Below, piece by piece: positions 433 to 25,987 of a stretch of DNA of 64,000 bases. How positions within the stretch are numbered: position 1 is the first letter of the stretch; each line of letters begins with the position of its first letter. The DNA comes from an uncultured Gammaproteobacteria bacterium. Lineage in GTDB: Bacteria; Patescibacteriota; Microgenomatia; Daviesbacterales; UBA10151. The DNA is taken from positions 69,347-133,346 of the forward strand of contig CAZCNP010000002.1 in the NCBI GenBank assembly GCA_964500725.1, in the 5' to 3' direction. The translations under genes were made by a program, and so were the position numbers. Below the pieces are notes generated by a model. That model made no database searches. It was not told where the DNA came from and worked only from the letters and a program-made list of their open reading frames with translations.

Positions 433-1500
433 CTACCCCTTCCTAATTTCTGCTTCGATAAAATCATTTAGATCACCATCCAAAACAGCATCTGTATTAG
501 AAGTTTCCACATTCGTTCTTAAGTCTTTGACCATATGATAAGGATGCAGTACATAAGATCTGATTTGTGTTCCCCATGAAGCTTGAGTTGTGCTTCCTTT
601 AAGCTCCTTAGTCAGTTGTTTTTTTTCTGCTTCCTGTTTTTCCCACAGTTTTGCCAAAAGCAGTTTCATAGCATTTTCCCTATTTTGCAGTTGTGATCTT
701 TCTGTTTGGGCTGTAACAGTAATACCGGTTGGAAGATGTTTTACCCTGACAGCAGTTGAGACTTTATTAACATTTTGTCCTCCTGCCCCTCCTGATCTAA
801 AAGCTTCAAATTCAATATCTGCCTCGTTAATCTCGACTTCTTCAGGGTTAATTACTGGTAATGTTTCAACTAAGGCAAATGAGGTTTGTCTTAAATTATC
901 AGCATTAAAAGGGGATTGTCTGACCAGCCTATGAGTCCCAGCCTCGCCTTTTAAATAGCCAAAAGTAAAAGGTTCATGTACAATCATGGAAACTGTTTTA
1001 ATGCCTGCTTCCTCACCCGGGTTTTCATCGGTTATTTCGTATTTCCAATTTTGTCTGTCAAAATATCTTTGGTACATTCTTACAAGCATAGCTGCCCAAT
1101 CCATGGCCTCAACTCCTCCTGCTCCTGAATGAACGGATAAAATAGCTTGTGATCCGTCATGGGGGTTTGATAAAAATAGTTTCAGCTCTAATTTATCCAA
1201 TATTTCCCCTATTTCTTTTACCTCTTTTTTCAGGTCTTCCTGCATAGAAGGTTCTTCTGAAATTTCTAAACAGTTTCCAATCCTGGTTTCTAGTTCTTCC
1301 AATGTTTTTACTGTTTTCTGTTTGTCTGAAAGCTTCCGACTGATGACTGATGACTCCTGAGGATTATTCCAAAAACCCTCTTTCATGGTTTGGGCTTCTA
1401 GTTTTCTGATTTCTTGTCTTAATTCATCCTGGTCAATAGACTCTGAAACTTTCCCAAACCTTTCTTTTAATTCTTTTAACTTATTTTGTATCTCTTCCAT
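433..1500 (-). CDS. prfB: Peptide chain release factor 2.
   Basis: SPF tripeptide (RQSPFNA) diagnostic of RF2, GGQ motif ([13 protein letters not shown]), 355 aa. Continuous ORF with no programmed +1 frameshift site. Confidence 0.92.
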
Positions 1501-1536: not shown

Positions 1537-1839
1537 ATGATTCTGTCTATTGATACCAAACATCAGAAAGTGGTTAGGGTAGAGATAAAAGATAAGGCAA
1601 AAGTGATAGGAAGTTTATCTGAGGAAAATGAATATGGATCACAAGTCCTTTTGCCCCTTATTCTGCAATTACTACGAACTACAAACTCCGAACTACGAAC
1701 TCTTAAAGGTATAGAAGTAGAAACTGGACCAGGGTCTTTTACTGGGTTAAGGGTTGGGGCTTCTGTTGCTAATGCTTTGGGGTTTTCTTTAGGAATTCCT
1801 GTTAATGGTAAAAAAATTGAGACAGAGTTGGTATACTAG
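1537..1839 (+). CDS. tsaB: TsaB (YeaZ)-like tRNA t6A biosynthesis protein, N-terminal domain only (about 100 aa).
   Basis: MILSIDT start and GPGSFTGLRVG motif are typical of the TsaB/Kae1 N-terminal domain. Start moved from the track's 1486 to the internal Met at 1537, matching the canonical TsaB N-terminus and removing overlap with prfB. Unusually short. Confidence 0.55.
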   Translation: MILSIDTKHQKVVRVEIKDKAKVIGSLSEENEYGSQVLLPLILQLLRTTNSELRTLKGIEVETGPGSFTGLRVGASVANALGFSLGIPVNGKKIETELVY

Positions 1840-1843
1840 AAGA

Positions 1844-2719
1844 ATGGCCTTGCGTAATTGGTTTTTGCCTCACAAAGATACCCATAAAAAAGCGCATTTA
1901 ATTTCTTGGGAAGGTTTAGTTATTTATATCTTAATTTTTATTCTGCTGCAGGTAAGTTTTTCTATTATAAGTTATACCAAACCAGGGATTTTAGGGATTA
2001 CTTCCAGTGTTAATCAAAAGATTCTTATAGAGCTTACCAATCAGGAAAGGCAAAAAGCAGGCCTCTCTCAAGTTTCAGAAAATGAGGCATTAAACAAAGC
2101 AGCATACCTTAAAGCTCAAAACATGTTTGCTGAAAACTACTGGGCTCACTTTGCTCCTTCTGGGAAATCTCCTTGGGATTTTATCTTAGGAGCAGGTTAT
2201 AAGTTTACTTTTGCTGGGGAAAATTTAGCCAAAAATTTTTATTCTTCTGATGAGGTAGTAAAAGCCTGGATGGCCTCACCTACTCACAGGGATAATTTAT
2301 TAAATTCCAAATATAAAGATATAGGGATAGCTGTGGTGGAGGGGGTATTAGATGGTCAAAAAACTACACTGGTAGTACAGGAATTTGGAACAACACAAAG
2401 TTTGGCTGCAAATCCTGCCGTTGCAGTTCAAGGAAAACAGGTTGTAGTGCCGCCAAAAGTTATAGCCAATCCTCCTCAGCTAATAGAAGGAGCAACGCAG
2501 GCTAAAGTTAGTCCTAAAGTATTGGTAGATCCTTACTCAGTATCTAAGGTAGCTGGATTATCAGTTATAACTTTGATTGTAGTATTGCTTACTATCGATA
2601 TTGTGGTTTTGAAAAGAAGAGGAGTTTTTAGATTATCTTCTCATCATATTGCCCATATGGCTCTTTTATCATTGGCAGCTGGCAGTATGTTTATGTTAGG
2701 TCCAGGTAGTATTTTATGA
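1844..2719 (+). CDS. CAP/SCP (PR-1, YkwD-like) domain protein with a C-terminal transmembrane anchor.
   Basis: N-terminal TM, then CAP-domain motifs (HFAPSGKSPWDF, FAGENLA, WMASPTHRDNLL, GIAVV), then a Pro/Val-rich linker and a C-terminal TM helix. Start chosen at the internal Met (MALRNWF). Confidence 0.65.
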   Translation: MALRNWFLPHKDTHKKAHLISWEGLVIYILIFILLQVSFSIISYTKPGILGITSSVNQKILIELTNQERQKAGLSQVSENEALNKAAYLKAQNMFAENYWAHFAPSGKSPWDFILGAGYKFTFAGENLAKNFYSSDEVVKAWMASPTHRDNLLNSKYKDIGIAVVEGVLDGQKTTLVVQEFGTTQSLAANPAVAVQGKQVVVPPKVIANPPQLIEGATQAKVSPKVLVDPYSVSKVAGLSVITLIVVLLTIDIVVLKRRGVFRLSSHHIAHMALLSLAAGSMFMLGPGSIL

Positions 2720-2873: not shown

Positions 2874-3956
2874 ATGAAAGCAATTATACCAACAGGTGGG
2901 CGCGGTACCAGAATGCGTCCCTTAACTTTTTCTACTAACAAACATTTTATTCCAGTTGCCAACAAACCCTTAATTTTTTATCCTATTGAAACAATAGCTG
3001 ATGCAGGTATCAAAGAGGTGGCTATAACTTATAACCCAGGAGGTTTGGAAGAAGCAAAAGCATACCTAGGAGATGGCAGTAGGTGGAACTTAAATTTAAC
3101 TTATGTTTTGCAAGAAAAACCAGCTGGACTTGCTAATATTGTCCAAGTTTGTGAGGAGTTTGTTGGTGGAGACTGCTTTGTTTTTCATCTAGGTGACAAT
3201 ATGTTTGTGGATGGAATTGCCGAGCAGGTTGACTATTTTGAGAAGGAAAAACCTAATGGTTTGGTGACAATGATTCATCATAATGAAAATAGGAGGATGG
3301 GAGTGCCTTACTTTAACGATGAAGGCAGGCTTATCAAATATGTAGAAAAACCAGAAAACCCTCCTCATGATTTTGCTGTTCCAGGAGTGTATTTTGGAGA
3401 TAGTAATTTCTTTAAATGTTTTAAAGGCCCGAATGCGCTAAAGCCATCTGCGCGGGGAGAGTATGAAATTCCAGGCGCTTTTCAGTGGTTAATTGATAAT
3501 GGTTTTCGGGTTGATGCTTTGGAATATAAAGGAGTATGGCTGGATCCTGGAAAATTTGATGATTGGATTGATGCAAACCAATACATGTTAAAAAATAAAT
3601 TAAAGGAAAATATTGAATGCAAAGTTGATCCAAGCAGTAAATTACAAGGGACAGTAGCTTTAGGTACAGGATGTAGTGTAGTCAACTCTAAAATCACAGG
3701 TCCAGTCGCAATTGGTGATAATGTGACTATTACCAACTCAGAAATTGGCAGCTATACCTCAATTGCTGGCAATTGTGAAGTAGTAAACAGCAAAGTTTCA
3801 AATAGCGTGCTGATGAATGGGGTAAAGATTTTGGATGTAAGGGAACATCCAGTTGATAATAGTTTAATTGGTACAGATTCTGAAGTTATTGGTAAAGATG
3901 GCAGAGGAGCCACAACATCTCTTTTTGTTGGAGAAAAGTGTAAAATACAAATTTAA
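2874..3956 (+). CDS. rmlA: Glucose-1-phosphate thymidylyltransferase, long form with a C-terminal left-handed beta-helix domain.
   Basis: GGRGTRMRPLT nucleotide-binding signature. C-terminal hexapeptide-repeat region (VAIGDNVTITNSEIGSYTSIAGNCEVVNSKV). Directly precedes rmlB, rmlC and rmlD. Confidence 0.8.
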   Translation: MKAIIPTGGRGTRMRPLTFSTNKHFIPVANKPLIFYPIETIADAGIKEVAITYNPGGLEEAKAYLGDGSRWNLNLTYVLQEKPAGLANIVQVCEEFVGGDCFVFHLGDNMFVDGIAEQVDYFEKEKPNGLVTMIHHNENRRMGVPYFNDEGRLIKYVEKPENPPHDFAVPGVYFGDSNFFKCFKGPNALKPSARGEYEIPGAFQWLIDNGFRVDALEYKGVWLDPGKFDDWIDANQYMLKNKLKENIECKVDPSSKLQGTVALGTGCSVVNSKITGPVAIGDNVTITNSEIGSYTSIAGNCEVVNSKVSNSVLMNGVKILDVREHPVDNSLIGTDSEVIGKDGRGATTSLFVGEKCKIQI

Positions 3957-4960
3957 TGAAACTTCTTGTTACAGGTGGAGCTGGGTTTATCGGATCTAAC
4001 TTTGTGCGTTACTGGATAAAGAATCATCCTGAGGATGAAATAATAATTTTTGATCTCCTAACTTATGCAGGGCATTTAAGTAGTCTGAAAGATGTTGAAA
4101 ATAACCCTAATTATAAATTTATTCAGGGGGATATTACTGATGTAGAAGCTGTTGAGCAGGCTTTGGAAGGTGTTGATATAGTGGTTCATTTTGCAGCTGA
4201 ATCACATGTTGATCGTTCAATTATTGATCCATTGAAGTTTGTAAAAACTAATGTTTTGGGTACTGCAGTTTTATTAAACGCTGCCTTGGATGCAAAAATT
4301 AAAAAGTTTCATCATGTCTCAACAGATGAAGTATACGGAGAGTTGAAACCAAACGATCCTCCATTTGTAGAAAATACACCTTATCAGCCCCGGACACCTT
4401 ATTCAGCGTCTAAGGCAGGATCTGATCATTTAGTGAGAGCCTATTTTGAAACTTATGGTTTGCCGATTACTATTACAAATTGCGCTAATAATTATGGTTT
4501 TTATCATGATCCAGAAAAACTTATCCCTCGGTTTATCACCAATTTTTTAGAAGGGAAGAAGGTTCCGTTGATGGGCAAGGGTGAAAATATTAGGGAATGG
4601 CTACACGCAGAAGATCATGCTGCTGCTATTGATCTTGTTTTGCAAAAAGGTAAAGCAGGAGAGACCTATTTAATTGAAGGGGAAGAGAAAACTAATTTAG
4701 AAATTACTCAAATGTTGCTCAAGATTTTAGGAATGGATGAGTCGATGATTGAATTTGTGGAGCACCGATTAGGGCATGATTTCCGTTATGCCATCAATGG
4801 GGAAAAATTGAAGTCTTTGGGTTGGGAAAGAAAACATAGTTTAGAGGAGGATTTGCCTAAAATAGTTGACTGGTATAAAGAAAACGAGTGGTGGTGGAAG
4901 CCTTTAAAAGAGGGGAGACCTAATATTGATCGGGTTGCCCAAAAATCATATGGAAAATAA
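3956..4960 (+). CDS. rmlB: dTDP-glucose 4,6-dehydratase.
   Basis: TGGAGFIGSNF Rossmann motif, YSASKAGSDHL catalytic YxxxK, ITNCANNYG. Start overlaps the rmlA stop (TAATG). Confidence 0.92.
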   Translation: MKLLVTGGAGFIGSNFVRYWIKNHPEDEIIIFDLLTYAGHLSSLKDVENNPNYKFIQGDITDVEAVEQALEGVDIVVHFAAESHVDRSIIDPLKFVKTNVLGTAVLLNAALDAKIKKFHHVSTDEVYGELKPNDPPFVENTPYQPRTPYSASKAGSDHLVRAYFETYGLPITITNCANNYGFYHDPEKLIPRFITNFLEGKKVPLMGKGENIREWLHAEDHAAAIDLVLQKGKAGETYLIEGEEKTNLEITQMLLKILGMDESMIEFVEHRLGHDFRYAINGEKLKSLGWERKHSLEEDLPKIVDWYKENEWWWKPLKEGRPNIDRVAQKSYGK

Positions 4961-5501
4961 CTACATTAAAAAAACATCTATTCCTGGACTGTTAATTTTA
5001 GAAAGACCAATATTATCAGATGAGCGGGGTTTTTTTAGGGAATTATTCCATAAAGATGAATTAGAAAAAATAAGCGGTATTAAATTTGATGGTGTGCAAA
5101 TGAATCACTCACATTCTGTTTCTGGAGTTATAAGAGGTATTCACGCGGAGCAATGGAATAAAATTATTTATCCAGTTTCCGGAGAGGTTTTTATAGCAAT
5201 AGTTGATATAAGACCAGATTCTCCAACTTTCGGAAAGGTAGAAACCTTTAATGTTGGTGAGAATAACAGAATAGGGCTTTTTATACCAAATGGACTGGCT
5301 AATTCAGTTTGTGTAATAGGAGAAAAGCCGGTGGATTATATTTATTTAGTAGATGCTTACTGGGATGGATCAGATACCAGAGCAATTGCCTGGGATGATC
5401 CTGATTTGCAGATTGACTGGCCTGTTAAAAATCCTGTAATTTCTGAAAGAGACAAAAATAATCCAAAGTTGAGAGAGTTATTTCCGGAGAAGTTTAAATG
5501 A
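4950..5501 (+). CDS. rmlC: dTDP-4-dehydrorhamnose 3,5-epimerase.
   Basis: Cupin-fold RmlC motifs (DERGFFRELF, GIHAEQWNKIIYPVSGEVF, DIRPDSPTFGK). Start moved to the internal Met (MENNYIKK) to limit overlap with rmlB. Confidence 0.88.
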   Translation: MENNYIKKTSIPGLLILERPILSDERGFFRELFHKDELEKISGIKFDGVQMNHSHSVSGVIRGIHAEQWNKIIYPVSGEVFIAIVDIRPDSPTFGKVETFNVGENNRIGLFIPNGLANSVCVIGEKPVDYIYLVDAYWDGSDTRAIAWDDPDLQIDWPVKNPVISERDKNNPKLRELFPEKFK

Positions 5502-6397
5502 AAAAGGTTTTAGTATTTGGTGGCAGTGGTTTAGTTGGTTCTAAATTTATTGATTTATATTCAAACGACTTTGAAATTAAAGCTCCTGATGCATCTTCTG
5601 TAGATATATTAAAAAAAGACCAGGTTGCAAATATAGTAGAGGAATTTAACCCTGATAGCATTATTAATTTTGCAGCTTACACCAATGTTGAAGAAGCTGA
5701 GAAACAAAAAGGGGATAAAGCAGGTATTTGCTATTTAATAAATTCAATTGGAGCAAAGAATGTTGCGGAGATTGCAAAAGAATTTAATAAAAAGTTAATT
5801 CATATCTCAACAGAATATGTTTTTGACGGGACCAAAGATGTAAGTCCGTATACAGAAGAGGACAAACCTAACCCTATTAATTGGTATGGGCAAACAAAAT
5901 ATTTTGGGGAACAGTTTGTTTTAGAAAGCGAATGTTCTGCTGTAATAGTTAGGATATGTATGCCCTATAGCGCATTTTACGAGTTAAAAAAAGATGTTGC
6001 CAGGTTTTTCCTCGAGCAATTAAAGAATGGTAATCAGATAAAAGCAATTGAAGATCAAAGAATCACCCCCACTTTGGTAGATGATATCGCTAATGGTTTG
6101 AGGGTAATAGTTGAATCAAGCGCAAATGGGCTTTATCATGTTAGCAGTATAGATAGTGTAACTCCTTTAGAATTTGCAAAAACCATTGCTGAGACCTTTA
6201 AGCTAAATTATTCACTTATTAGCTCCATTGATTTTGATGAGTATAATAAAGGCAAGCAAGCAAAATTATTGAAATTTTCTTGGTTAAATCCTGCAAAGTT
6301 TGAAGAACAATTTGGGGAAGGAATACTGCATACAGTTGAGCAAGGATTAGTTATTTTTAAAAGAGCTGTTGACGAAAAAGGAAAGAATCAGCTATAG
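5498..6397 (+). CDS. rmlD: dTDP-4-dehydrorhamnose reductase.
   Basis: VLVFGGSGLVGSKF Rossmann motif, INFAAYTNVEEAE, about 300 aa. ATGA overlap with rmlC. The position completes rmlABCD. Confidence 0.8.
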   Translation: MKKVLVFGGSGLVGSKFIDLYSNDFEIKAPDASSVDILKKDQVANIVEEFNPDSIINFAAYTNVEEAEKQKGDKAGICYLINSIGAKNVAEIAKEFNKKLIHISTEYVFDGTKDVSPYTEEDKPNPINWYGQTKYFGEQFVLESECSAVIVRICMPYSAFYELKKDVARFFLEQLKNGNQIKAIEDQRITPTLVDDIANGLRVIVESSANGLYHVSSIDSVTPLEFAKTIAETFKLNYSLISSIDFDEYNKGKQAKLLKFSWLNPAKFEEQFGEGILHTVEQGLVIFKRAVDEKGKNQL

Positions 6398-6407
6398 TAG
6401 ACAAAAT

Positions 6408-7424
6408 ATGGTACAAAGTAAGAGAGCTTTTATAACTGGAGTAAGCGGACAAGATGGATCCTATTTATCAGAGTTCCTTTTAGATAAGGGATATGAAGTG
6501 GCTGGTTTGGTACGCAGAAATGCAGCCTTAGATTTTGGAAACGCTAATGAGATTAAAGATGAGATAAAAATTTATTATGGGGATTTGCATTCTCCGGAAT
6601 CAATTGCCTTAGCATTATTGGATTTCAAGCCGGATGAAATATATAACTTAGCTTCTTTATCATCACCCTTAGGGTCATTTAGTGACAAATTAGGAGCAAT
6701 TATGATTACAGGGGTGGGTGCTTTGCATGTTTTTGAAAGAGCTAAAAGTATTGTTCCAGAGGCAAAAATATATCAAGCATCAACATCTGAAATGTTTGGA
6801 GCCCCTAAGCAAGTTCCTCAGAATGAAGAGACTGTTTTTGCTCCTGCTAATCCTTATGCAGCTGCAAAAGAGTTTGCTCACAGAATGGCAGCTATTGCAA
6901 GGAATGATAAAAATCAACCTCAATTTATTTCCTGTGGAATTTTGTTTAATCATGAAAGCCCAAGACGGGGTTTAAATTTTGTTACTAGAAAAATTACTGC
7001 TGCTGTTGCCATAATTAAGAATGGTCGAAAAGAAGGCATACCACTAAATGAAATAGGCGACCCAATTGTAGAAAACGGCAAAGTGAAATTGGGCGACCTT
7101 AGTGCAAAGCGGGATTGGGGTTTTGCACCTGATTATGTTGAGCTTATGTGGATGATATTACAGCATGAAAAGGCAGATGATTTTGTAGCAGCAACAGGTG
7201 AAATTCATACTGTTGAAGAGTTTGCTAAAGAAGCATTTGCTGTTGTAGGTTTAGACTGGAAAGATCATGTTGAAACTGATTCACATCTTGTGCCACCTGT
7301 ACAAACAGGGCCGCTTTGCGGAGATGCTTCAAAAGCTAAAAAGGTTTTAGGATGGGAACCAAAAACAACTTTTTCCGATTTGGTTAAAATTATGGTTCAT
7401 GCTGATCTGGCAAAATTCTCCTAA
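6408..7424 (+). CDS. gmd: GDP-mannose 4,6-dehydratase.
   Basis: AFITGVSGQDGSYLSEFLL and ILFNHESPRRG are hallmark GMD motifs. Start at the internal Met (MVQSKRAFITG) just after the rmlD stop. Confidence 0.88.
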   Translation: MVQSKRAFITGVSGQDGSYLSEFLLDKGYEVAGLVRRNAALDFGNANEIKDEIKIYYGDLHSPESIALALLDFKPDEIYNLASLSSPLGSFSDKLGAIMITGVGALHVFERAKSIVPEAKIYQASTSEMFGAPKQVPQNEETVFAPANPYAAAKEFAHRMAAIARNDKNQPQFISCGILFNHESPRRGLNFVTRKITAAVAIIKNGRKEGIPLNEIGDPIVENGKVKLGDLSAKRDWGFAPDYVELMWMILQHEKADDFVAATGEIHTVEEFAKEAFAVVGLDWKDHVETDSHLVPPVQTGPLCGDASKAKKVLGWEPKTTFSDLVKIMVHADLAKFS

Positions 7425-7488: not shown

Positions 7489-8676
7489 ATGCAAAAGATA
7501 GTTAGCGTAGTTTTACCCACCTTTAACGAGAAAGCAAATATTGTCAGCACTGTTGAGAAAGTCTTTGAGCAGGAGAATAAACTTAAGGACTATAAAATAC
7601 ATATTGTAATTGCAGATGATATTAGATCTTCTGATGGAACAGAGCAAGTCGCCCAACAATTAGCTAAAAAGTACAAAAGAGTTCATTGTTTGAAAGTGAA
7701 CCCAGGGCTTGGTGTAGGTTTGATATCTGGTCATAAATATGCAATTGAAAAATTTCATCCATATGTTTTAGCTCAACTTGATGCTGATGGCCAGGTGGCA
7801 CCAGATATTTTAGTAAGACTTGTTAAAACCATTGAGCAAGGTTATACCCTGGCAATTGGCTCCAGATTTATCAGTGGGGGTAAAAATCAATTATCTTTTA
7901 TGAGAAGGCTTTTTACTTATGGGGCATCGATTGTCTGCAGGTTGTTTATAGGCCCATGGGATATTAAAGAAGTTACTAACTCTGCCAGAGCGTTTACTCC
8001 TGCTCTTTTCCAAAAAATCAATTTAGAAAGATTGCCTTGGCGTGAGCGGACTTTTATTGTGCAACCTGCTTTTTTGCATGAGGCAATTCTAGCAGGCGCT
8101 AAGTATAAAGAGGTGCCATTGGTATTTAAAGACCGTCTAGAAGGTTATTCTAAAAATAAAGTATTTAACTATACCTATGATATTATTGCCTATTGCTTAG
8201 ATGTAAGATTAAACTCTTGGGGAGTAAAAGTTCCTGTCTATAAGTTATCCAGGAAGGCAAAAACTGTAGTTAAGTTTGCTTTAGTTGGATTTGTTGGAAC
8301 AATGATAGACTTTTTATTTTATAAAATATTTATTAATATGTTCGGTGTTCCTCCAGCAACTTCAAAAGGTATCTCTACAGAGATTGCAATATTAAACAAT
8401 TTTATCTTAAATAATTATTGGACATTTAGGTACCGCAAAACAAAAACAAACATCTGGCAGAAATTGGGAATATTTAATTTAGTAAGTTTAGGTGGGCTTA
8501 TTATAGGTGTTTTAATAGTAAAGTTTTTACATCTTACTTTCGGAGATGGATTTGTAGATATACTTGGGCGTCCGATCGCTTACAATAACTTTTATTTTTT
8601 TGCAACTATTCCTCCAGTTATGCTTTGGAATTTTACAGTTAACCACCTTATTACTTGGCGTAACCAAGAAGACTAG
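7489..8676 (+). CDS. GT2 glycosyltransferase (polyprenyl-phosphate sugar synthase-like) fused to a C-terminal GtrA-like 4-TM domain.
   Basis: N-terminus VVLPTFNEKANI...ADDIRSSDGT is a GT2 fold with a DxD-type motif. The C-terminal 130 aa (FALVGFVGTMIDFLFYKIFINMF...NNYWTFR) match the GtrA family signature. Confidence 0.8.
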   Translation: MQKIVSVVLPTFNEKANIVSTVEKVFEQENKLKDYKIHIVIADDIRSSDGTEQVAQQLAKKYKRVHCLKVNPGLGVGLISGHKYAIEKFHPYVLAQLDADGQVAPDILVRLVKTIEQGYTLAIGSRFISGGKNQLSFMRRLFTYGASIVCRLFIGPWDIKEVTNSARAFTPALFQKINLERLPWRERTFIVQPAFLHEAILAGAKYKEVPLVFKDRLEGYSKNKVFNYTYDIIAYCLDVRLNSWGVKVPVYKLSRKAKTVVKFALVGFVGTMIDFLFYKIFINMFGVPPATSKGISTEIAILNNFILNNYWTFRYRKTKTNIWQKLGIFNLVSLGGLIIGVLIVKFLHLTFGDGFVDILGRPIAYNNFYFFATIPPVMLWNFTVNHLITWRNQED

Positions 8677-9827
8677 TTAAATAGTGAGATATTTGGAATT
8701 GGAGCTACATTGGCAATTAGGAAATTTTGGGCATACAGATATGTAGCCAAAAGTATTATAGGAAGTATTATTTTAAATTCTCGGCTGGTTAAAACTTTTT
8801 CAAAAGAAATCAACACAAAAGGGGCAGCAGGTAGTAGGTAACGGCTAATATCTCGATGAGCAACTAAGGAAGAAGCAGCCAAATAGGTTAAAACAAAAAA
8901 TGCCAAAGGGTACAGTTTTTGCTTTAACAGTGTAATTCCACCTAATAGTATTAACATAAAGATATAGACAACATCTTCAAGCCAAATATCTCCTACCCAA
9001 AATTGTTGCTTATTAAATACTTGGAATGGAGGAAAAGTTAAATGAATATTATCACCGCTATGAAAATATGCCCAAAAATCACCATAAGTTTGTCCGTATA
9101 AATAAAATACTCCGAAAAGACTTAATGGGATAAGGAGTAAAGCGGAATATTTTGCTATCGAAGTAAATATTGATACTTGTTGTTTGAGTAATTTCCACAA
9201 AATATACAAAGACAAAGCTATAAATAGTAAAATCCCAGGAGGTCGTGTGATTTGAGCCAGAGCACCAAAGATAGCTGTTAGAAAAATATTTATACTATTA
9301 TGTGACTGTTCAAACTTCATAAAAAAATAGACAGCAGTAATAATAAAGAATATAAAAGTAGGTTCTGATGATCCTACACTATGGACAATTAGCCATCTGG
9401 CAGGTAAGACCAGGAATATAAAAGATAAAAAAAGCGGCTGGTTGGTGAGTTTAAAATCCTTCACTAATAAGTAAAACATCCAAGCGGCGCCAATAGTGGA
9501 TAGCAGAGAAATAAATAACATTGATTTTAAATACCCCAATAGAGGGGCGAGAATATAAATTAAGATTGAATACCCAGGAAAATGAGAGGCAAAATAATTG
9601 GCTGGTAGGGCTTGTCCTAAAGCAGCTATAGAGGCAGGGTTGTAGAAAGTTTTGGCGATAATAATATATTCCAGTCCGTCATAGTTTCGGTAAATGGTGC
9701 TGAAGCCCTCTTTAAAGTTTAATCCCCAAAAATTAGGCATAGCCAGGATATGGGGTAACCAAATTATAAGGGTGATTATAATAGCCAGAGAAGCTAAGAT
9801 AAGGCAGTCTTTTGCAGATTTAACCAT
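8673..9827 (-). CDS. Polytopic membrane protein, putative GT-C glycosyltransferase (PIG-V / GPI mannosyltransferase 2 family-like).
   Basis: About 10 predicted TM helices. First external loop has RNYDGLEYIIIAKTFY, resembling the WDxxHF..IA..GY signature of PIG-V-type mannosyltransferases. Assignment is tentative. Confidence 0.5.
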   Translation of the reverse strand: MVKSAKDCLILASLAIIITLIIWLPHILAMPNFWGLNFKEGFSTIYRNYDGLEYIIIAKTFYNPASIAALGQALPANYFASHFPGYSILIYILAPLLGYLKSMLFISLLSTIGAAWMFYLLVKDFKLTNQPLFLSFIFLVLPARWLIVHSVGSSEPTFIFFIITAVYFFMKFEQSHNSINIFLTAIFGALAQITRPPGILLFIALSLYILWKLLKQQVSIFTSIAKYSALLLIPLSLFGVFYLYGQTYGDFWAYFHSGDNIHLTFPPFQVFNKQQFWVGDIWLEDVVYIFMLILLGGITLLKQKLYPLAFFVLTYLAASSLVAHRDISRYLLPAAPFVLISFEKVLTSREFKIILPIILLATYLYAQNFLIANVAPIPNISLFN

Positions 9828-9876
9828 TGATCAAATCATAGCAGAAAATTGATAAATTATGCTACACTTATGAGCA

Positions 9877-12072
9877 ATGAAGGTTGATTCTTTATCGGTT
9901 TTTTTTCCATGTATTAATGAAGAGGGTAATATTGAAAGCACTGTCTCGCAAGCTGAGACCGTTTTAAAAAAGCTTAAGCTAAAATATGAAATTATTGTTG
10001 TTGATGATGGCTCAACAGACAAGACAGGGGAGATTGCCGATAAATTAGCGAAAGAAAATTCTCATATTAGGGTGATTCATCATCCGAAAAATTTAGGTTA
10101 CGGCGAAGCATTAAAATCGGGTTTCTATAGCGCTAAATACGACGTTATAGTCTATACAGATGGAGATAGACAGTTTGATTTTTCCGAGGTAACTAAATTT
10201 TTAGAAAAAATTAAAGACTCAGATATGGTAATAGGTTATAGAATAAAAAGGCAAGATTCATTTTTGAGAAAACTATTTGGCAGGGGTTGGAGATTGACGC
10301 TATTTACTTTCTTTGGTTTGACGCTGAAGGATGTAGACTGTGGTTTTAAGATGGTGAGAAAAAGTGTGATTGAAAAAATACCTCATCTTGAATCACAAAG
10401 AGGAGCAATGATTAATGCAGAACTGGCAATTAAGGCAAAAAAGTTTGATTTTAGAATAACTCAAGTAGGAGTAAATCATTATCCTAGATTATCAGGTAAG
10501 CCAACAGGAGCAAATATTCAAGTGATAATCAAATCTTATATAGATTTAGTTAAACTTTGGTGGAAACTAAAAGATGAAAAGCTGCTATTTGCTAGTTTAA
10601 TTTTTGTATTGTTTTTAGCAGGTTTTTTCAGGTTTTACAAAATCTCTGAGTACATGACTTTTTTAGGGGATGAGGGACGTGATGCAATTGTTATAAAAAA
10701 AATACTGACAAATTATGACTTACCTTTGATTGGACCTCCAACTTCCGTAGGTAATATTTATTTGGGGCCGCTTTATTACTATCTAATGACGCTTCCGATG
10801 GCAATTTTCTACCTTAACCCTGTAGCTGCTGCTGGCATGAATGCCTTTTTTGGTGTGGCAACTGTGCTGTTTATTTACTATCTTGGTAAAAACTGGTTTG
10901 GCAGGTTTGCAGGCTTAGTAGCAGCTTACTTATATGCTATATCGCCAGTGACAGTAATCTACTCAAGATCCTCCTGGAACCCCAATCCTACTCCTTTTTT
11001 CTCGCTGCTTACTATTTTTGGATTCTATAAAGCTTATGAGTCAAAAAACTTTAAGTGGTTAATTTTAACAGGGATAGGAGCAGCAGCAGCAATACAAATG
11101 CATTATTTAGCGTTGATTTTACTGCCAATTATTGTAGTTGTTTGGATTAAGGCGTTATTAAGTAATTTAGCAGAGAACAAATATAGGGCCTTTTGGGCAG
11201 GGACAATTCTTGCAGTTGCATCTTTTCTATTCTTGATGTCTCCACTTGTAGTTTTCGATATAAAACATAACTTCTTAAATTATCGAGCAATTACTGAGTT
11301 GTTTTCCAATAATGATACGGCGGTAAGTTTTAATCTATTGAATACATTAAGTAAGATTCCCGCAATATTCAGTAATAATTTGATCGGAAGATACATTGCT
11401 GCAGAGAATAGTTTTTTACAGCAGCTAGTTGCGTTACTGGTTCTGATGCCTCTTGCTGGGGCTACTTATCAAGTATATAAAAACCGCTTGATAAATTTTG
11501 GCTTATGGATATTAAATACCTGGTTGTTAATTGGGGTATTAGGGTTGAGTTTTTATAAAGGGAGTATTTACGATCATTACTTAGGGTTTTTAAATCCTGC
11601 TCCTTTCTTGCTTTTGGGGGGAGTTGTATTTTTGATATCTTTAGCGCCAAAAAGGATTAGATGGCTAGGTAACGGAGGAGTGTTTATAATGCTTATTACT
11701 TTGACAATAGTTAATCTTCAAAAATCTCCACTTTTGAAACCTCCAAACAATCAGTTAATAAGAACTCAGCAAGTGGCTAAGTTTGTTATTAATGAGGCAA
11801 AAGGAGAAGACTTCAATTTTGCCTTGCTTGCTGCTAGGAATTATGATTCAGCATACCAGTATTATCTAGATATTTATGGACATAAACCTCAACAAGTACC
11901 GTTTGAAATTACAGATCAATTATTTGTAGTTTGTGAGGATGCTATATGCCAGCCTATTAATAATGCTAAATATGAGATTGCAGGTTTTGGTTGGGCTAAA
12001 GTGGTAAGCGAGCAGAACATATACGGGGTAAAGGTTTTTAAATTAGTGCATAATCCATCTGGTAAACCATGA
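9877..12072 (+). CDS. Bifunctional fusion: N-terminal DPM1-like GT2 and C-terminal ArnT/PMT-like GT-C membrane glycosyltransferase.
   Basis: Residues 1-230 are GT2 (FFPCINEEGNI, VVDDGSTDKTGEIA, DGDRQFD). Residues about 240-731 are polytopic, with LGDEGRDAIVIKKIL and GPLYYY in the first external loop, typical of ArnT/PMT-type GT-C enzymes. Confidence 0.8.
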   Translation: MKVDSLSVFFPCINEEGNIESTVSQAETVLKKLKLKYEIIVVDDGSTDKTGEIADKLAKENSHIRVIHHPKNLGYGEALKSGFYSAKYDVIVYTDGDRQFDFSEVTKFLEKIKDSDMVIGYRIKRQDSFLRKLFGRGWRLTLFTFFGLTLKDVDCGFKMVRKSVIEKIPHLESQRGAMINAELAIKAKKFDFRITQVGVNHYPRLSGKPTGANIQVIIKSYIDLVKLWWKLKDEKLLFASLIFVLFLAGFFRFYKISEYMTFLGDEGRDAIVIKKILTNYDLPLIGPPTSVGNIYLGPLYYYLMTLPMAIFYLNPVAAAGMNAFFGVATVLFIYYLGKNWFGRFAGLVAAYLYAISPVTVIYSRSSWNPNPTPFFSLLTIFGFYKAYESKNFKWLILTGIGAAAAIQMHYLALILLPIIVVVWIKALLSNLAENKYRAFWAGTILAVASFLFLMSPLVVFDIKHNFLNYRAITELFSNNDTAVSFNLLNTLSKIPAIFSNNLIGRYIAAENSFLQQLVALLVLMPLAGATYQVYKNRLINFGLWILNTWLLIGVLGLSFYKGSIYDHYLGFLNPAPFLLLGGVVFLISLAPKRIRWLGNGGVFIMLITLTIVNLQKSPLLKPPNNQLIRTQQVAKFVINEAKGEDFNFALLAARNYDSAYQYYLDIYGHKPQQVPFEITDQLFVVCEDAICQPINNAKYEIAGFGWAKVVSEQNIYGVKVFKLVHNPSGKP

Positions 12073-12806
12073 AAAAGATATCTATTGTTATTCCTGCATA
12101 TAATGAGACAGCTAATTTAAAAAGAGGAGTGTTGTTAGAAGTAGGGAAGTATTTGGACCAACTTAAACTGGATTATGAAGTGATTGTAGTAGATGATGGT
12201 TCTTCGGATCAGAGTGTTGAAATAATTAAAAAATATATATCCAAAAATGAAAATTTCAAACTCCTTCAAAATTCTCATGGAGGAAAAGCCAATGCGGTAA
12301 TGACAGGTATGCTTAGTGCGGCAGGAGAAATTATATTATTTACGGATATGGATCAAGCTACGCCCATTAATCAAATCGAAAAGTTCCTGCCTAAATTTGC
12401 TAATGGTTTTGATATTGTGATTGGATCACGTCAAGGGAGAAAAGGAGCGCCTTTAGTTAGAAAATTATCAGCATGGGGTTTTTCTTTGCTGCGCGCAGTG
12501 ATTTTAGGATTACCTTTTAAAGATACCCAGTGCGGTTTTAAAGCATTTAGTAAAAGTGTGGTTGATAAATTAATACCCAAGATAAAAAGTGAATGGGGAG
12601 TAGTTCATTTTAAGGGTGGGGCAGTTAATGCGGGGTTTGATGTTGAGCTTTTGTACCTAGCTAAAAAGTATGGTTTTAGGATTGCTGAGGTTGAGGTGGA
12701 GTGGAAATATGTTGACACTGAAAGGGTGCAAGTTGTTAAAGATGCAGCAGCAGCAATTTATGATATGTTCAGAATAAGGTTGAATGATTTGAGGAACAAA
12801 TACTGA
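12069..12806 (+). CDS. GT2 glycosyltransferase, DPM1-like (polyprenyl-phosphate hexose synthase-like).
   Basis: ISIVIPAYNETANL, VVDDGSSDQS, FTDMDQATP (DxD). Soluble, 245 aa. ATGA overlap with the upstream gene. Confidence 0.85.
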   Translation: MKKISIVIPAYNETANLKRGVLLEVGKYLDQLKLDYEVIVVDDGSSDQSVEIIKKYISKNENFKLLQNSHGGKANAVMTGMLSAAGEIILFTDMDQATPINQIEKFLPKFANGFDIVIGSRQGRKGAPLVRKLSAWGFSLLRAVILGLPFKDTQCGFKAFSKSVVDKLIPKIKSEWGVVHFKGGAVNAGFDVELLYLAKKYGFRIAEVEVEWKYVDTERVQVVKDAAAAIYDMFRIRLNDLRNKY

Positions 12807-12861: not shown

Positions 12862-14385
12862 GTGAAGCTCCTGTTGCAACATAAGATTGAAATTTTAATT
12901 CTTTTCTTGCTAGCTGTTTTGTACTTTGCTCTGCGGTTACCAAATTTAACACTGCAGCCTATCTTTGCAGATGAGGCAATCTATATCAGATGGGCGCAGG
13001 TGATGAAAGCAGAGTCTACCTTACGGTTCTTACCTTTATCTGATGGCAAAACCCCTCTTTTTATGTGGGTTTTAATTCCTGTTTTCAAATTTATTAATGA
13101 CCCACTCCTTGCAGGAAGATTTGTATCTGTAGCAGCAGGTTTTTTTACATTGCTAGGAGTATTTTTTCTGTCCAAAAAAGTTTTCAATATAAAAACTGCC
13201 TTGTGGGCATGTTTGTTATATGTAATAACCCCTTATGCTGTTTTTTTTGATCGGATGGCTTTAGTTGATTCGATGCTTTCAGCTTTCACTATTTGGTCAG
13301 TATATCTTGCGATACTTCTTGCTGGTAATTTGAGATTTGATACCTCGATGGTCTTAGGGTATTTGCTTGGTGGCGCTTTACTTACCAAGACTCCTGCTAT
13401 GATTAACCTGTTGCTTCTTCCAATTACCATATTGGGGTTCAGAAATGAAAAGAAAACAAAAAATACTTTTCTTAAATTAGTATTGCTATGGGGGCTAGCG
13501 ATTATCATAGCCTTGGTTATGTATAATACTTTAAGGCTTGGACCTAATTTTCATCTGCTTTCATCAAGAAATGCTGATTATATTTTCTCCCCATTAGAAC
13601 TTTTAGGAAGACCTTTAGATCCTTTTATACCTCATTTTAATGATATCGCTGATTGGTTTCCAAAACTGTTTACCTGGCCGATTTTACTTTCAGGGCTGAT
13701 GGGAATTGCCTATCTGATTTTTGGATTATGGCAACAATCCTTTAGAGGACCACTGCTTAAGGGATTGGTAATATTGCTTTGGGCTTTAATACCGCTTCTG
13801 TTAAACATGACGTTTTTAAAAACTTTTACCTCCCGCTACCTTTTACCCTCAATCCCTACTTTTCTTATTTTAGCTGGTTTTGGGATAACTAAATTATTGC
13901 CAAGGTTGGCTTATATAAAGAGGTTTCCTCTGGCATTAATGTTGATAGTGGTTTTGCCGCTTCCTTTATACTTTAATTATTTATTACTAACCTCACCTGA
14001 TAAAGCTCCTTTACCTAGGGAAACAAGAGAAGGATATTTTGAAGCATGGACAGCAGGATATGGATTTTCTGATATTGCCGAATTTATAAAGGAGAAAAGT
14101 AAAACTCAAAAAGTAGTAGTGGGTACAGAAGGCTTTTTTGGAACTTTGCCAGATGGGTTGTATATTTATTTGGATAAATCAAATGTTTCTTTTGTTGGCT
14201 CTCATGCTACTATCTCTGCTCAAATTAGAGAGGCAGCCAAGGATAATTTAGTATATTTTGTTGGTAATAAAAAGAGGGTTCAAGGCAGTGTTAGTAATGT
14301 AATTTTAATTAAAGAATATCCAAAAGCCAAACCAAAAGATAATTCTCCTCAAGATGCAACAGTTTTATATCAAGTATTGCCGTAG
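12862..14385 (+). CDS. ArnT/PMT-family (GT83/GT39-like) GT-C membrane glycosyltransferase.
   Basis: GTG start. First loop has IFADEAIYIRWAQ (DE catalytic motif). About 11 TM helices followed by a C-terminal soluble domain of about 120 aa. Confidence 0.7.
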   Translation: MKLLLQHKIEILILFLLAVLYFALRLPNLTLQPIFADEAIYIRWAQVMKAESTLRFLPLSDGKTPLFMWVLIPVFKFINDPLLAGRFVSVAAGFFTLLGVFFLSKKVFNIKTALWACLLYVITPYAVFFDRMALVDSMLSAFTIWSVYLAILLAGNLRFDTSMVLGYLLGGALLTKTPAMINLLLLPITILGFRNEKKTKNTFLKLVLLWGLAIIIALVMYNTLRLGPNFHLLSSRNADYIFSPLELLGRPLDPFIPHFNDIADWFPKLFTWPILLSGLMGIAYLIFGLWQQSFRGPLLKGLVILLWALIPLLLNMTFLKTFTSRYLLPSIPTFLILAGFGITKLLPRLAYIKRFPLALMLIVVLPLPLYFNYLLLTSPDKAPLPRETREGYFEAWTAGYGFSDIAEFIKEKSKTQKVVVGTEGFFGTLPDGLYIYLDKSNVSFVGSHATISAQIREAAKDNLVYFVGNKKRVQGSVSNVILIKEYPKAKPKDNSPQDATVLYQVLP

Positions 14386-21062: not shown

Positions 21063-22535
21063 ATGGACGAAAGCGTTGAACAGACTGATCCCACAGAAGA
21101 ATTGGCGCCAGATGCTATAAGCAAACAAGTTAAAAAGGGTGTAGCAATATTAACCTTTCGGACAATAATTATTCAAGCAATTTCATTTTTTTCAAATGCC
21201 TTACTAACAGTATTTCTTTTACCAGTGGAATACGGGGTATTTTTTCTTGTATCTGCCGTAATAAACTTTCTTGCCTATTTTAGCGATATTGGATTTGCTG
21301 CCAGCTTGATTCAGAAAAAGAAACTTGAACACGATGATCTAAAGACAGTGTTTACAGCGCAGCAAATTTTGGTATTAGGGCTAATAGTTATAGTTTTATT
21401 GATGACTCCTTTTATAAGTAGTTTTTATAAGTTTGATCAGGCAGCTTTATACCTGCTTTGGGCGCTAGCTTTATCTTTAGTTTTCTCTTCCCTTAAAACA
21501 ATACCTTCAGTTTTGCTGGAAAGAAAATTGGAATTTAACAAATTGGTTATACCTCAAATTATCGAAACTATTGTTTTTAGTATAACTACTGTTTATCTTG
21601 CCTGGAAGGGCTTTGGGGTGACCAGTTTTACAATTGGAGTAATTGCTAGGGGGTTTTTTGGTTTGGTAGCCACATATATAGTTTCTCCTTGGGTGCCTAA
21701 GATTTCCTTTTCTACCGAGTCTTTCAGATCAATAATGAAGTTTGGGATCCCATACCAAGCAAATACATTTTTGGCGATGATAAAAGATGATGGTATGACA
21801 TTGTTTTTAGGTGGCATTTTGGGAGCAGGGGGAATTGGACTTCTGGGATGGGCTCAGAAGTGGGCTTATGCTCCTCTGAGATTTTTTATGGATCAAGTAA
21901 TAAAGGTTACTTTTCCAGCTTTTTCTAGATTACAGGATAATAGAAAGGAATTATCAGATTTGGTAAGTAAATCAATCTTTTTTATCTGTTTTCTAGTTTT
22001 TCCTTCACTTGTTATGCTATTACTTTTAGCGCCAACTTTAGTAACGATTATTCCAAAATACATTAAATGGAGCCCAGCGCTCTTTGCATTATCTGTCTTA
22101 ACAGTTACCTCAGGGTTGGCTGCAATTACTACACCTTTGACTAATACCTTAAACGCTATAGGTAAAATATCCCTGACTTTTAAGTTTATGATTATGTGGA
22201 CAGTACTGACTTGGGTTTTTGTTCCCCTTCTTGCTTATCTTTACGGCTTAAATGGCGCTGCAATTGGATTTACATTAGTAGGTTTTAGTTCTTTTGTAGC
22301 ATTATATCTAGTATCTAAGTATGTAGATATAAACTATCTTCAAAGTGTTGGAAAGCCTTTACTTGCTTCGGCAGTTATGGGAATTTTTGTTTTTATTATA
22401 AAAAATATTTTACTTGTATCATGGCAGCAGATTATCGTTATGGTTGGTGTTGGCGCAGTTGTATATTCATTGATGATGATTATGGTTGAACCAAAGCTTT
22501 TACTACTAATTAAAGATCAATTTAAAAAGAAGTAA
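21063..22535 (+). CDS. Wzx-like oligosaccharide / polysaccharide flippase (MOP superfamily).
   Basis: 490 aa, about 14 TM helices, polysaccharide-biosynthesis-protein architecture (FLAYFSDIGFAASLIQKK, C-terminal hydrophobic repeats). Confidence 0.7.
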   Translation: MDESVEQTDPTEELAPDAISKQVKKGVAILTFRTIIIQAISFFSNALLTVFLLPVEYGVFFLVSAVINFLAYFSDIGFAASLIQKKKLEHDDLKTVFTAQQILVLGLIVIVLLMTPFISSFYKFDQAALYLLWALALSLVFSSLKTIPSVLLERKLEFNKLVIPQIIETIVFSITTVYLAWKGFGVTSFTIGVIARGFFGLVATYIVSPWVPKISFSTESFRSIMKFGIPYQANTFLAMIKDDGMTLFLGGILGAGGIGLLGWAQKWAYAPLRFFMDQVIKVTFPAFSRLQDNRKELSDLVSKSIFFICFLVFPSLVMLLLLAPTLVTIIPKYIKWSPALFALSVLTVTSGLAAITTPLTNTLNAIGKISLTFKFMIMWTVLTWVFVPLLAYLYGLNGAAIGFTLVGFSSFVALYLVSKYVDINYLQSVGKPLLASAVMGIFVFIIKNILLVSWQQIIVMVGVGAVVYSLMMIMVEPKLLLLIKDQFKKK

Positions 22536-25500: not shown

Positions 25501-25987
25501 ACCAATATTAATACTAACTCCTATAAATTCAATTACCACAGCCTCTTATTATACGGGTTTTTTGCCTCACGGAAGAGTTGATCATAAAGAATTACAAGCT
25601 CTACATTTTTTATCTTACCAGGATGATGGTGTTGTGCTTACAGTTCCATATGATAAAAAATTAAGGAGTAAAGTTTCAGAACCTTGGCCGCTGTTTATAT
25701 ATGATAGTACTGCTTATGTGTCTGCTCTATCTAAAAAAAGTGTTTACCTGGAGGATGAGCCGCAAAACCAAATCCTTTTGACAGATTACACGAAAAGGTT
25801 AGTCACATCAAAAGACTTTTTCTTAAGACCTATATCAGAAAATCTACAATTCTTAAAAGAGAACAGGATAAAATATATTTATATTCCAAAAATATACAAT
25901 CTAAGACTTGATGAAAGTTCTGGGACAATAATGAACCTTTTCGAGAACGAAGAAGTGGTGATTTATAAAGTGGTCAAATTAGTATGA
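22535..25987 (+). CDS. Large 1150-aa protein: signal peptide, extracytoplasmic domain of about 480 aa of unknown (possibly carbohydrate-active) function, then a polytopic HDGIWHI-motif membrane domain.
   Basis: Signal peptide MKKLIFLLLCLLSTFIAPVAFAQG. C-terminal half has about 14 TM helices with FWGPNTHDGIWHISLINQLIAGFPVENPIYAGTVLKNYHFFYDLL, shared with the next ORF. Confidence 0.6.
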   Translation: MKKLIFLLLCLLSTFIAPVAFAQGNSFVSIVNPVRGDDFWDLKDQKIETAVLGQIEILNNFTLPATWLIRFDALDEGRVIRELKNRYQDEKGLFLEVTPTWAEAAEVKYRKSSSWHAAGSAFLTGYERDEREKLIDKSFERFEKVFGYFPKSVGAWWIDSYSLDYMQNKYGITSGLIVADQYTTDNYQIWGQYFSTPYYPDKKNALHPAQSEENKIPVVLSQWAARDPVNGYGNGVFESTFSVQPNDYIDYHELDTNYFSKLVNLYTNQGINQFGAIVVGLENTYDWNKYQNEYKNQISFLKQRNQKGLLSVVTLGDFADWYQKTFPQVSPEHVIVADDPLGLNKKVVWFMNPYYRVGWFYNNDGSVIRDIRQYVEGEEEICFQKSCSEVNFATFATRVLDEVTYGHKLLIDEGEISDFKASRIEEKIRISYLNEAGKHRTVEFLPRDISIDGKISSIDRTILDAIKQDTSEQNKQTDFKEGSFSWSIAGVLSKSIKFLFFLLIVCLAPGLIFAHKLIKENEFLALKIFLALVIGIVLLTVMFYITSALNLRLLLPLYILAALLFFIKTKQFTLFQIKPPKAIDKLQIAAVIVVILGTIFQNIPTFKSGLTFSFGMGFWGPNTHDGIWHISLINQLIAGFPVENPIYAGTVLKNYHFFYDLLVASVALITRLPVVDLVFRFFPLLFSLLLGLGTYYLAIKLFTSRVGIVRAKIAAIFSLYFVYFAGSFGWIVEYIKQKSFGGESAFWANQAISYNLNPPFAVSLLIIIALVYLLIMHQRRSLYWIFTTVLLTGSLIGFKAYGAVLILVSLFAISIVHILKKDFSYFFVFVFSLIITLIIFLSNFEQSEQLIVFSPFWFIHSMIDSPDRVGWIRLTMTRIVGFQTQNYLKIFYAEGLSLLIFIAGNLGMRILSLFLLLKIKSISSSGGLIILIFSLASFLIPTLFIQSGNPWNTIQFTYYGLYMTAVISGLVLSSLFFSIPKLLSILLIIPILILTPINSITTASYYTGFLPHGRVDHKELQALHFLSYQDDGVVLTVPYDKKLRSKVSEPWPLFIYDSTAYVSALSKKSVYLEDEPQNQILLTDYTKRLVTSKDFFLRPISENLQFLKENRIKYIYIPKIYNLRLDESSGTIMNLFENEEVVIYKVVKLV

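Follow-up and report, generated by a model that had tools for sequence, protein, structure and literature searches.

A GT2 lipid-sugar synthase-type domain joined to a GT-C glycosyltransferase domain on a single polypeptide in a Patescibacteria glycan locus

The stretch of DNA analyzed here (the window, 64 kb in length) comes from an uncultivated, Daviesbacteria-like member of the Patescibacteria and is a glycan-biosynthesis locus. RmlABCD and a GMD-like dehydratase are encoded upstream of the gene under study, and the window also holds approximately 17 GT-C-like or uncharacterized polytopic proteins, other GT2 and GT4 enzymes, two Wzx-like flippases (at 21063 and 47542), a carbamoyltransferase, and a GT4-methyltransferase fusion. 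No other gene of the Arn pathway was noted within the 64 kb. Four of the GT2s are of the polyprenyl-phosphate type (7489, 9877, 12069, and 36575), and each adjoins a GT-C. The preliminary description of this DNA had proposed that the two families are functionally paired throughout the locus; pairing holds for these four GT2s but not beyond them. Given some 17 GT-C-like genes and three polyprenyl-phosphate-type GT2s besides the one at 9877, adjacency alone does not fix which synthase supplies which transferase.

The GT2 at 9877 forms the first part of an uninterrupted open reading frame (ORF) that begins with ATG and encodes 731 amino acids followed by a stop codon (Table 1). Its TGA stop codon shares an ATGA overlap with the ATG of the downstream gene. 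Pfam analysis identified Glycos_transf_2 at residues 7 to 168 (E value of 1.1e-29; 103.9 bits against a cut-off of 23.3), PMT_2 at residues 298 to 456 (E value of 1.7e-12; 48.3 bits against a cut-off of 26.1), and PMT at residues 309 to 432. All three matches exceed the Pfam gathering cut-offs, and no membrane-domain family other than GT-C (PMT_2/PMT) was matched. The domain junction maps to residues 231 to 235 (nucleotides ~10567 to 10581), inside the interval of 10560 to 10620 estimated beforehand. The earlier view of this gene as a single-polypeptide fusion, with a GT2 in the N-terminal ~230 residues and a polytopic DE-motif GT-C in the remainder, was accurate in both coordinates and description: the GT2 half ends at residue 231, and the rest of the protein combines the PMT_2 match with 11 predicted transmembrane (TM) helices and an invariant D265-E266 pair. 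A structure model of the fused protein has a pTM of 0.81, which is only suggestive with regard to the interface between the two halves. We regard the fused architecture itself as near certain.

Table 1. Features of the fused gene and its syntenic neighbors (window positions)
Feature	Position	Strand	Basis
Fused GT2-GT-C gene	9877..12072	+	ORF, Pfam, homologs
Cytoplasmic GT-A/GT2 catalytic domain (aa 1-212), polyprenyl-phosphate glycosyltransferase type	9877..10512	+	Pfam, fold, alignment
Amphipathic juxtamembrane helix (aa 214-231), IQVIIKSYIDLVKLWWKL, last GT2 element	10516..10569	+	Structure model, hydrophobic moment
Three-residue linker KDE (aa 232-234), fusion/fission point	10570..10578	+	Split-relative junctions
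GT-C membrane core (aa 235-615), 11 predicted TM helices, N-in/C-out	10579..11721	+	Structure model, hydropathy
FLGDEGRD motif (aa 262-269), first extracytoplasmic loop, putative GT-C catalytic site	10660..10683	+	72-ortholog alignment
C-terminal extracytoplasmic alpha/beta domain (aa 616-731), Cys pair C686/C691	11722..12069	+	Structure model, alignment
DPMS-type GT2 with its own GtrA/DPMS 4-TM domain, syntenic neighbor	7489..8676	+	Pfam, PDB match
Divergent syntenic neighbor, 384 aa, 8 TM-like segments, weak PMT_2 match (GT-C-like)	8673..9827	-	Pfam
Paralogous GT2 without a TM helix, 245 aa, ArnC/PgfS-like	12069..12806	+	Pfam, NCBIfam
PMT_2 GT-C, 507 aa, after the stand-alone GT2	12862..14385	+	Pfam

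At least 514 related stretches emerged from a scan of species-representative genomes, and the 80 best matches were analyzed. Nearly all of these 80 matched over residues 1 to 731, at 36 to 68% identity, and Daviesbacteria, Woesebacteria, and Amesbacteria are among their hosts; a more distant example of the fused form is carried by Beckwithbacteria. Many loci from binchicken MAGs are labeled "uncultured Gammaproteobacteria" or "Pseudomonadales," labels that we did not follow because the synteny is that of MAGs named Daviesbacteria, Woesebacteria, and Amesbacteria. The neighborhood is largely conserved over the 80 loci: RmlB/C/D, the GMD-like dehydratase, and the GT2 with a GtrA/DPMS TM domain are followed by the divergent GT-C-like gene, the GT2 and GT-C pair, a second GT2, and a second GT-C, and YfhO/PTPS_related paralogs close the order. 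The product of 7489..8676 matches Pyrococcus furiosus DPMS over residues 5 to 352 (E value of 4.6e-29) and may supply a second lipid-sugar donor as well as a candidate translocating domain. Most of the 80 loci keep the divergent gene on the opposite strand next to the fusion. The stand-alone GT2, which is 36% identical to the fused GT2, also lies directly downstream in most of them, and wherever it and the GT-C after it both occur in the 80 loci, the two are never fused.

Since close relatives carry the two halves as separate neighboring genes, at times a single in-frame stop apart, the fusion could in principle be an artifact in which two adjacent genes were merged by a frameshift or an overlooked stop codon between them. 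The assembly support across the junction was checked, and the DNA of the gene is base-for-base identical in the Logan assemblies of two independent runs (SRR12113433 and SRR12113431), which argues against such an error. A search for orthologous fusions was likewise successful. At least 120 homologs are listed at 60 to 70% identity, almost all of them full length (~710 to 740 amino acids) with both Pfam domains kept and two somewhat shorter or partial; their named hosts are Candidatus Daviesbacteria, Microgenomates, or Patescibacteria. Intact fusions occur in 43 species-level genomes, and the short linker is conserved in the clade of the window. The identical assemblies, the full-length homologs, and the 43 fused loci together exclude such an error, and we give the artifact practically no chance of being the explanation.

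Within the best 80 loci, the pair is encoded by one intact ORF in 43 (36 to 68% identity) and by two adjacent ORFs in 28; the other 9 are partial or otherwise different. The break in split loci always falls at the equivalent of fusion residue ~231/232. Eleven split junctions have an ATGA overlap, approximately eight have an in-frame stop followed after 0 to 42 nucleotides by a start codon, and one (in L078) has a 1.1-kb insertion. Five split junctions show 19-nucleotide overlaps, which arise mostly because the ORF caller chose an upstream GTG or TTG start; an in-frame ATG that gives an ATGA overlap is present in four of the five. MAGs named Daviesbacteria include fused as well as split examples. 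The linkers of fused forms are of at least three kinds: "WWKL-KDEK" in the clade of the window, "WWKF-LxK" in another fused form, and the long "WWQLKKEIL..VEQGRAVFRWE" in an Amesbacteria-like clade. A rough neighbor-joining tree analyzed by Fitch parsimony gives approximately seven changes between the fused and split states and a split root, values that are approximate and come without support values. When the GT-C half was compared with 1.84 billion representative proteins, 509 clusters were found at an E value of <1e-30. Most of the best 150 are stand-alone proteins of ~500 amino acids, while approximately nine have an N-terminal extension of ~230 to 255 amino acids, and five of the six extensions examined are GT2 domains. 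Distant stand-alone GT-C relatives (30 to 39% identity) adjoin a short GT2 gene, overlapping it in two of three cases. The state counts, linkers, tree, and GT-C search indicate that the two genes are otherwise split and that their fusion, though the minority state, is stable and recurs. They behave as a 1:1 unit, in which very small mutations at one point have repeatedly produced fusion or splitting, and the shared parts, fused or adjacent in relatives, suggest a joint working unit.

The GT2 half has a GT-A-fold catalytic domain that matches ArnC and GtrB in a structure search, with the ArnC alignment extending to residue 226. Its DXD motif, D95-G-D97 (nucleotides 10159 to 10167), is part of a D95-G-D97-R-Q99 segment that aligns with the DADLQ of the ArnC, DPMS, and GtrB class. 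In an alignment of 72 sequences, made up of fused orthologs and concatenated split orthologs, D48, D97, Q99, D152, H201, and R204 are invariant, and D95 is kept in 63; the invariant residues of both halves show no difference between fused and split forms. The metal and nucleotide motifs of the GT2 half are intact, and its class is that of the polyprenyl-phosphate glycosyltransferases. The GT2 family is very broad, and a rival assignment would make this half an ordinary cytoplasmic GT2 that acts on a lipid-linked oligosaccharide or another acceptor, with the fusion merely co-localizing two steps. Consistent with that assignment, all NCBIfam matches lie far below the equivalog cut-offs, none being reached for ArnC, ArnT, PgfS, or others, and the GT2 domain also weakly matches PgaC-, TuaG-, and EpsD-type models. 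We judge this assignment improbable.

Two helices, at residues 129 to 146 and 214 to 231, are predicted in the GT2 half by the structure model. The second has a hydrophobic moment of 1.38, and it is exactly at this helix that the GT2 gene of split relatives stops. No TM helix was found in residues 1 to 231 of the fusion, where the maximum 19-residue hydropathy is 0.97, and none of the 28 split GT2 partners (227 to 283 amino acids) has a C-terminal TM helix. The split partners and the fused GT2 half share the terminal amphipathic "..DLFKLWWKI(K/R)" helix. This places the GT2 half with the anchorless subclass of lipid-sugar synthases, which it resembles (DPM1, GacI, WpsA, and Ppm1-D2). Because the GT2 lacks a TM helix whether fused or split, the GT-C would double as its membrane anchor.

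The TM helices of the GT-C half were called from the helices of an AF2 model and a hydropathy profile. They are predicted at residues 235 to 253, 315 to 335, 343 to 360, 372 to 389, 392 to 408, 410 to 431, 436 to 463, 512 to 534, 541 to 558, 574 to 588, and 592 to 615, a number within the range of 8 to 13 for PMT_2/ArnT-like GT-Cs; three residues separate the amphipathic helix of the GT2 from the first of them. With the GT2 placed inside, the short inner loops have 5 Lys/Arg in 22 residues versus 5 in 75 for the short outer loops. D265, E266, R268, and D269 of the FLGDEGRD motif are invariant in all 72 orthologs, and the D265-E266 pair sits 12 residues past the first TM helix. W367, N368, P369, H409, and Y568 are also invariant in this alignment, and the predicted topology places every one of these GT-C residues on the outer side, together with the Cys pair, which is conserved in 71 of the 72. 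The GT-C half has a GT-C fold along with a family HMM match above threshold. A PDB sequence search gave no significant solved relative (PMT matches had E values of 1.6 to 2.3), so a fold search was required; by fold, this half matches ArnT, and in structural comparison its identity is 11% to ArnT and 11 to 15% to ArnT and Pmt4. With the GT2 inside and the invariant GT-C residues outside in the predicted topology, synthesis inside and transfer outside are topologically coherent. It is this topology that supports the putative use of a lipid-phosphate-sugar donor by the GT-C half on the outer face.

We propose that the fusion combines two enzymes in one membrane protein and serves a lipid-carrier-dependent pathway of extracytoplasmic glycosylation, of the GtrB/GT-C, ArnC/ArnT, and CsbB/YfhO type. 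At the inner leaflet, undecaprenyl (polyprenyl) phosphate would receive a monosaccharide that the GT2 half takes from a nucleotide sugar. Flipping of this lipid-sugar would follow, for which the neighboring GtrA/DPMS-type TM domain (7489..8676) and the Wzx-like proteins of the locus are candidates, and the GT-C half would then pass the sugar to an outer-face acceptor. Besides its role as a transferase, the GT-C would serve as the membrane anchor of the anchorless GT2. Repeated fusion, the fixed breakpoint, overlapping genes, and the anchorless GT2 argue for a 1:1 physical unit, and we consider the whole chain probable, with moderate confidence. The preliminary suggestion that one protein joins cytoplasmic donor synthesis to donor consumption on the outer face is accordingly supported, and the consumption by the GT-C of the product of its own GT2 is the least secure step. 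We think it highly improbable that the protein, like the 1:1 complex of its split relatives, is a self-contained synthase, translocase, and transferase, in which the GT2 passes its lipid-sugar straight to its own GT-C and the lipid-sugar crosses via the GT-C or the interface of the GT2 with the first TM helix and needs no separate flippase; if true, such a fusion would reduce to a minimal system the flipping of polyprenyl- and dolichyl-phosphate monosaccharides, a long-unsolved problem.

The least secure step is the one on which a second reading differs. Here, an active GT-C would merely hold, and perhaps activate, the GT2, whose lipid-sugar would be a pool for several GT-Cs, and the fused GT-C may take a donor different from the product of its own GT2. 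Several observations point in this direction: no TM helix is present in the GT2 half or in any split GT2 partner, many GT-C paralogs face few polyprenyl-phosphate-type GT2s in the window, GacJ and WpsB serve as activators, and Ppm1 is fused to a membrane partner that does not consume its product and is dispensable for catalysis. The Ppm1 precedent means that a synthase may be fused to such a nonconsuming membrane protein. In addition, one distant syntenic relative (L084) has a GT-C without an upstream GT2, and one fused homolog (P0167) retains a dead GT2 on an apparently intact GT-C. The latter lies on a contig of 71 to 74% GC in an unrelated gene context. Its GT2 half has lost D44, D97, Q99, D152, D154, and K158, while the GT-C motifs DEGRD, WNPN, and DHY and the Cys pair are kept, so that the GT-C can apparently work without its own GT2. 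We did not accept P0167 as a fusion in a phylum outside the CPR, as it is an isolated orphan, closest in sequence to Amesbacteria/Woesebacteria fusions (40 to 44% identity); it is probably a horizontally transferred copy with a decayed GT2. Against the second reading, the pair is adjacent, and mostly overlapping, in orthologs from 68% down to 36% identity and has been fused independently several times. A second GT2/GT-C pair lies directly downstream, so that each GT-C there has its own GT2, and characterized adjacent GT2 and GT-C enzymes use the same lipid-sugar (PMC5836110). We therefore consider an anchoring role without consumption unlikely, though it deserves to be weighed, and favor a GT-C that both anchors its GT2 and uses its product.

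In the part of the literature covered, a GT2-GT-C fusion is not described in any paper that we found; the nearest cases there were GT2/GT-C operon pairs, the fusions of GacI/GacJ and WpsA/WpsB, and Ppm1. Databases label such proteins only as "glycosyltransferase," "Glycosyltransferase 2-like domain-containing protein," or "family 39." Such an architecture could be expected from the pairings known so far, and public databases already contain it under generic annotations, so it adds to known biology without overturning it. Lipid-carrier glycosylation is usually drawn with separate enzymes that share a common, freely diffusing pool of lipid-sugar. The alternation of fused and split states at one point, together with an anchorless synthase, is genomic evidence for some 1:1 synthase/GT-C complexes, in which the transferase would keep its own supplier at the membrane. 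The fusion offers a compact, single-polypeptide system for studies of donor channeling and lipid-sugar flipping, as well as a GT2/GT-C pairing rule for the very large, uncharacterized glycan loci of Patescibacteria.

Among known systems, GtrA/GtrB/GtrC, ArnC/ArnEF/ArnT, CsbB/GtcA/YfhO, and PgfS/PgfM likewise combine a GT2 on the cytoplasmic face with a GT-C on the outer face, encoded by adjacent genes. In those systems the two enzymes are separate proteins, whereas here they are covalently joined or, in relatives, encoded by overlapping genes; GtrB and ArnC carry two TM helices of their own and P. furiosus DPMS carries four, in contrast to none in the GT2 of the fusion. The membrane part of P. 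furiosus DPMS (PDB 5mlz) is a four-TM, GtrA-like, non-GT-C domain, like that of the neighbor at 7489..8676 and unlike that of the fusion. ArnT (GT83) and the protein O-mannosyltransferases (GT39) resemble the fusion in their GT-C fold, in the acidic motif of the first outer loop, and in the PMT_2/PMT match, and ArnT does so also in having an outward-facing C-terminal soluble domain. The fused GT-C is neither ArnT proper, given the low identity noted above and no ArnT model among its NCBIfam matches, nor GT39 proper, as Pfam analysis found no MIR domain in the fusion. No ArnT or PMT is known to have an N-terminal GT2.

A precedent for the tether, as the preliminary description had recognized, is Ppm1 (Rv2051c) of Mycobacterium tuberculosis, in which an anchorless D2 polyprenyl-phosphate-mannose synthase is joined to a polytopic D1 domain (PMC3485146). 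The parts interact and are fused in some species but encoded by adjacent genes in M. smegmatis (Ppm2/Ppm1), where the membrane-domain gene MSMEG3860 is nonessential and the synthase alone is enough for PPM synthase activity (PMC3485146). Ppm1 thus shares with the fusion an anchorless synthase tethered to a polytopic membrane protein, fused or split, but its partner is a six-TM, non-GT-C protein rather than one bearing an intact GT-C active site. The fusion is not of the Ppm1 type, as its partner is a C-terminal GT-C (PMT_2). The Ppm1 partner, D1/Ppm2, is Lnt-like, and the domain order of Ppm1 is the reverse, with the membrane domain N-terminal. Anchorless synthases need a membrane partner, as in Ppm1-D2/Ppm2-D1, GacI/GacJ, and WpsA/WpsB, and natural GacJ-GacI fusions exist with the membrane partner N-terminal. 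A GT2 lipid-sugar synthase without a TM helix depends on a membrane partner in GacI/GacJ, WpsA/WpsB, PpgS/Rv3632, and DPM1/DPM3 alike. Anchoring of a GT2 by a GT-C would parallel the roles of Ppm2/D1 for Ppm1, GacJ for GacI, and DPM3 for DPM1. In contrast to GacJ, WpsB, Rv3632, and DPM3, which are small, noncatalytic proteins with one to three TM helices, the partner here is a C-terminal enzyme of 500 amino acids, and the fusion differs from the tethered synthases in that the tether is the C-terminally fused GT-C enzyme itself.

Nearly the entire window (1-64000) is a single glycan-biosynthesis locus, the release factor and CAP-domain genes being the two exceptions (see table). It encodes ~17 GT-C-like or uncharacterized polytopic proteins, along with ~11 GT2 and 5 GT1/GT4 glycosyltransferases, and GC skew is positive throughout. 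Directly upstream of the GT2-GT-C fusion gene, a gap of only 49 nt (9828-9876) separates it from a divergent GT-C-like gene (8673-9827, - strand), which leaves scant space for two promoters.

Features of the window outside the fusion gene (TM, transmembrane)
Feature	Position	Strand	Remarks
Release factor	433-1500	-	Outside glycan locus content
CAP-domain protein	1805-2719		Outside glycan locus content
RmlABCD	2874-6397		Within glycan locus
GMD-like dehydratase	6369-7424		Within glycan locus
Four tandem paralogs, 559-567 aa	14392-21058	+	PTPS_related/YfhO match (GT-C-like)
Wzx-like flippase	21063-22535		One of two
1150-aa protein	22535-25987	+	Signal-peptide-like start, ~480-aa soluble region, then ~14 TM segments
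662-aa protein	25984-27972	+	~13 TM segments
PMT_2 GT-C	34963-36588	-	Downstream of the 471-aa GT2
Polyprenyl-P-type GT2, 471 aa	36575-37990	-	AglJ/PpgS/Dol-P-hexose-transferase-like
Polytopic protein	41261-42880	-	8-11 TM-like segments (range for set of three)
Wzx-like flippase	47542-48828		One of two
Polytopic protein	50710-52521	-	8-11 TM-like segments (range for set of three)
NodU/CmcH-type carbamoyltransferase	52537-54249	-	Carbam_trans_N + Carbam_trans_C; inside glycan locus
GT4/GT1 glycosyltransferase-methyltransferase fusion, 666 aa	55189-57189	+	GT4/GT1 part, aa ~18-365; class I SAM methyltransferase domain, aa ~415-530
Polytopic protein, 903 aa	59428-62139	+	8-11 TM-like segments (range for set of three)

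The 471-aa GT2 and the PMT_2 GT-C gene, which overlap by 14 nt, are a fourth synthase/GT-C pair in the window, of a design unlike the others; this GT2 bears ~5 TM segments of its own. The tandem PTPS_related/YfhO paralogs (Yf1-Yf4) overlap at three of their four gene boundaries, and their copy number differs among related loci, where one to three of them are present. A Pfam search with the 1150-aa and 662-aa proteins returned zero matches; homologs of the former also occur in related loci (L029, L041, L074, and L078). The three polytopic proteins with 8-11 TM-like segments likewise matched nothing in Pfam, except for a weak GT-C_AftD match (E 0.004) to the 903-aa protein; they could be GT-C-like enzymes, or else polymerases, of a kind not yet described. 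Among the remaining enzymes, the carbamoyltransferase hints at carbamoylated sugars.

In the related locus L078, where GT2 and GT-C are separate genes, a 1.1-kb insertion (4868-5979 of that locus) lies between them and encodes a 272-aa open reading frame (ORF; 5082-5900) with one hydrophobic segment; compared with seven proteins encoded around the fusion in the window, it resembled none of them. In another related locus, L075 (5980-8156), the fused ORF is broken within its GT-C half, after a part matching fusion residues 1-439, and the following ORF matches from residue 454 onward. This site is unlike the regular break at residue 231; the gene is either frameshifted, a pseudogene, or wrongly assembled.

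Many of the related loci, L002 and L011-L015 among them, come from metagenome-assembled genomes (MAGs) of binchicken co-assemblies whose records bear the title "uncultured Gammaproteobacteria" or "Pseudomonadales". Their synteny is that of named Daviesbacteria, Woesebacteria, or Amesbacteria MAGs, and the taxonomy in the titles looks like a placeholder or a mistake. A different setting surrounds the fused homolog P0167 (L088, 7001-9211), which lies on a contig of 71-74% GC among unrelated neighbors (LarB/LarC-like proteins, an AraC-type regulator, and hemerythrin). The catalytic residues are gone from its GT2 half, but its GT-C half retains its motifs. The closest kin of P0167 are Amesbacteria/Woesebacteria fusions, at 40-44% identity, and it was probably acquired by horizontal transfer, its GT2 half decaying afterward.
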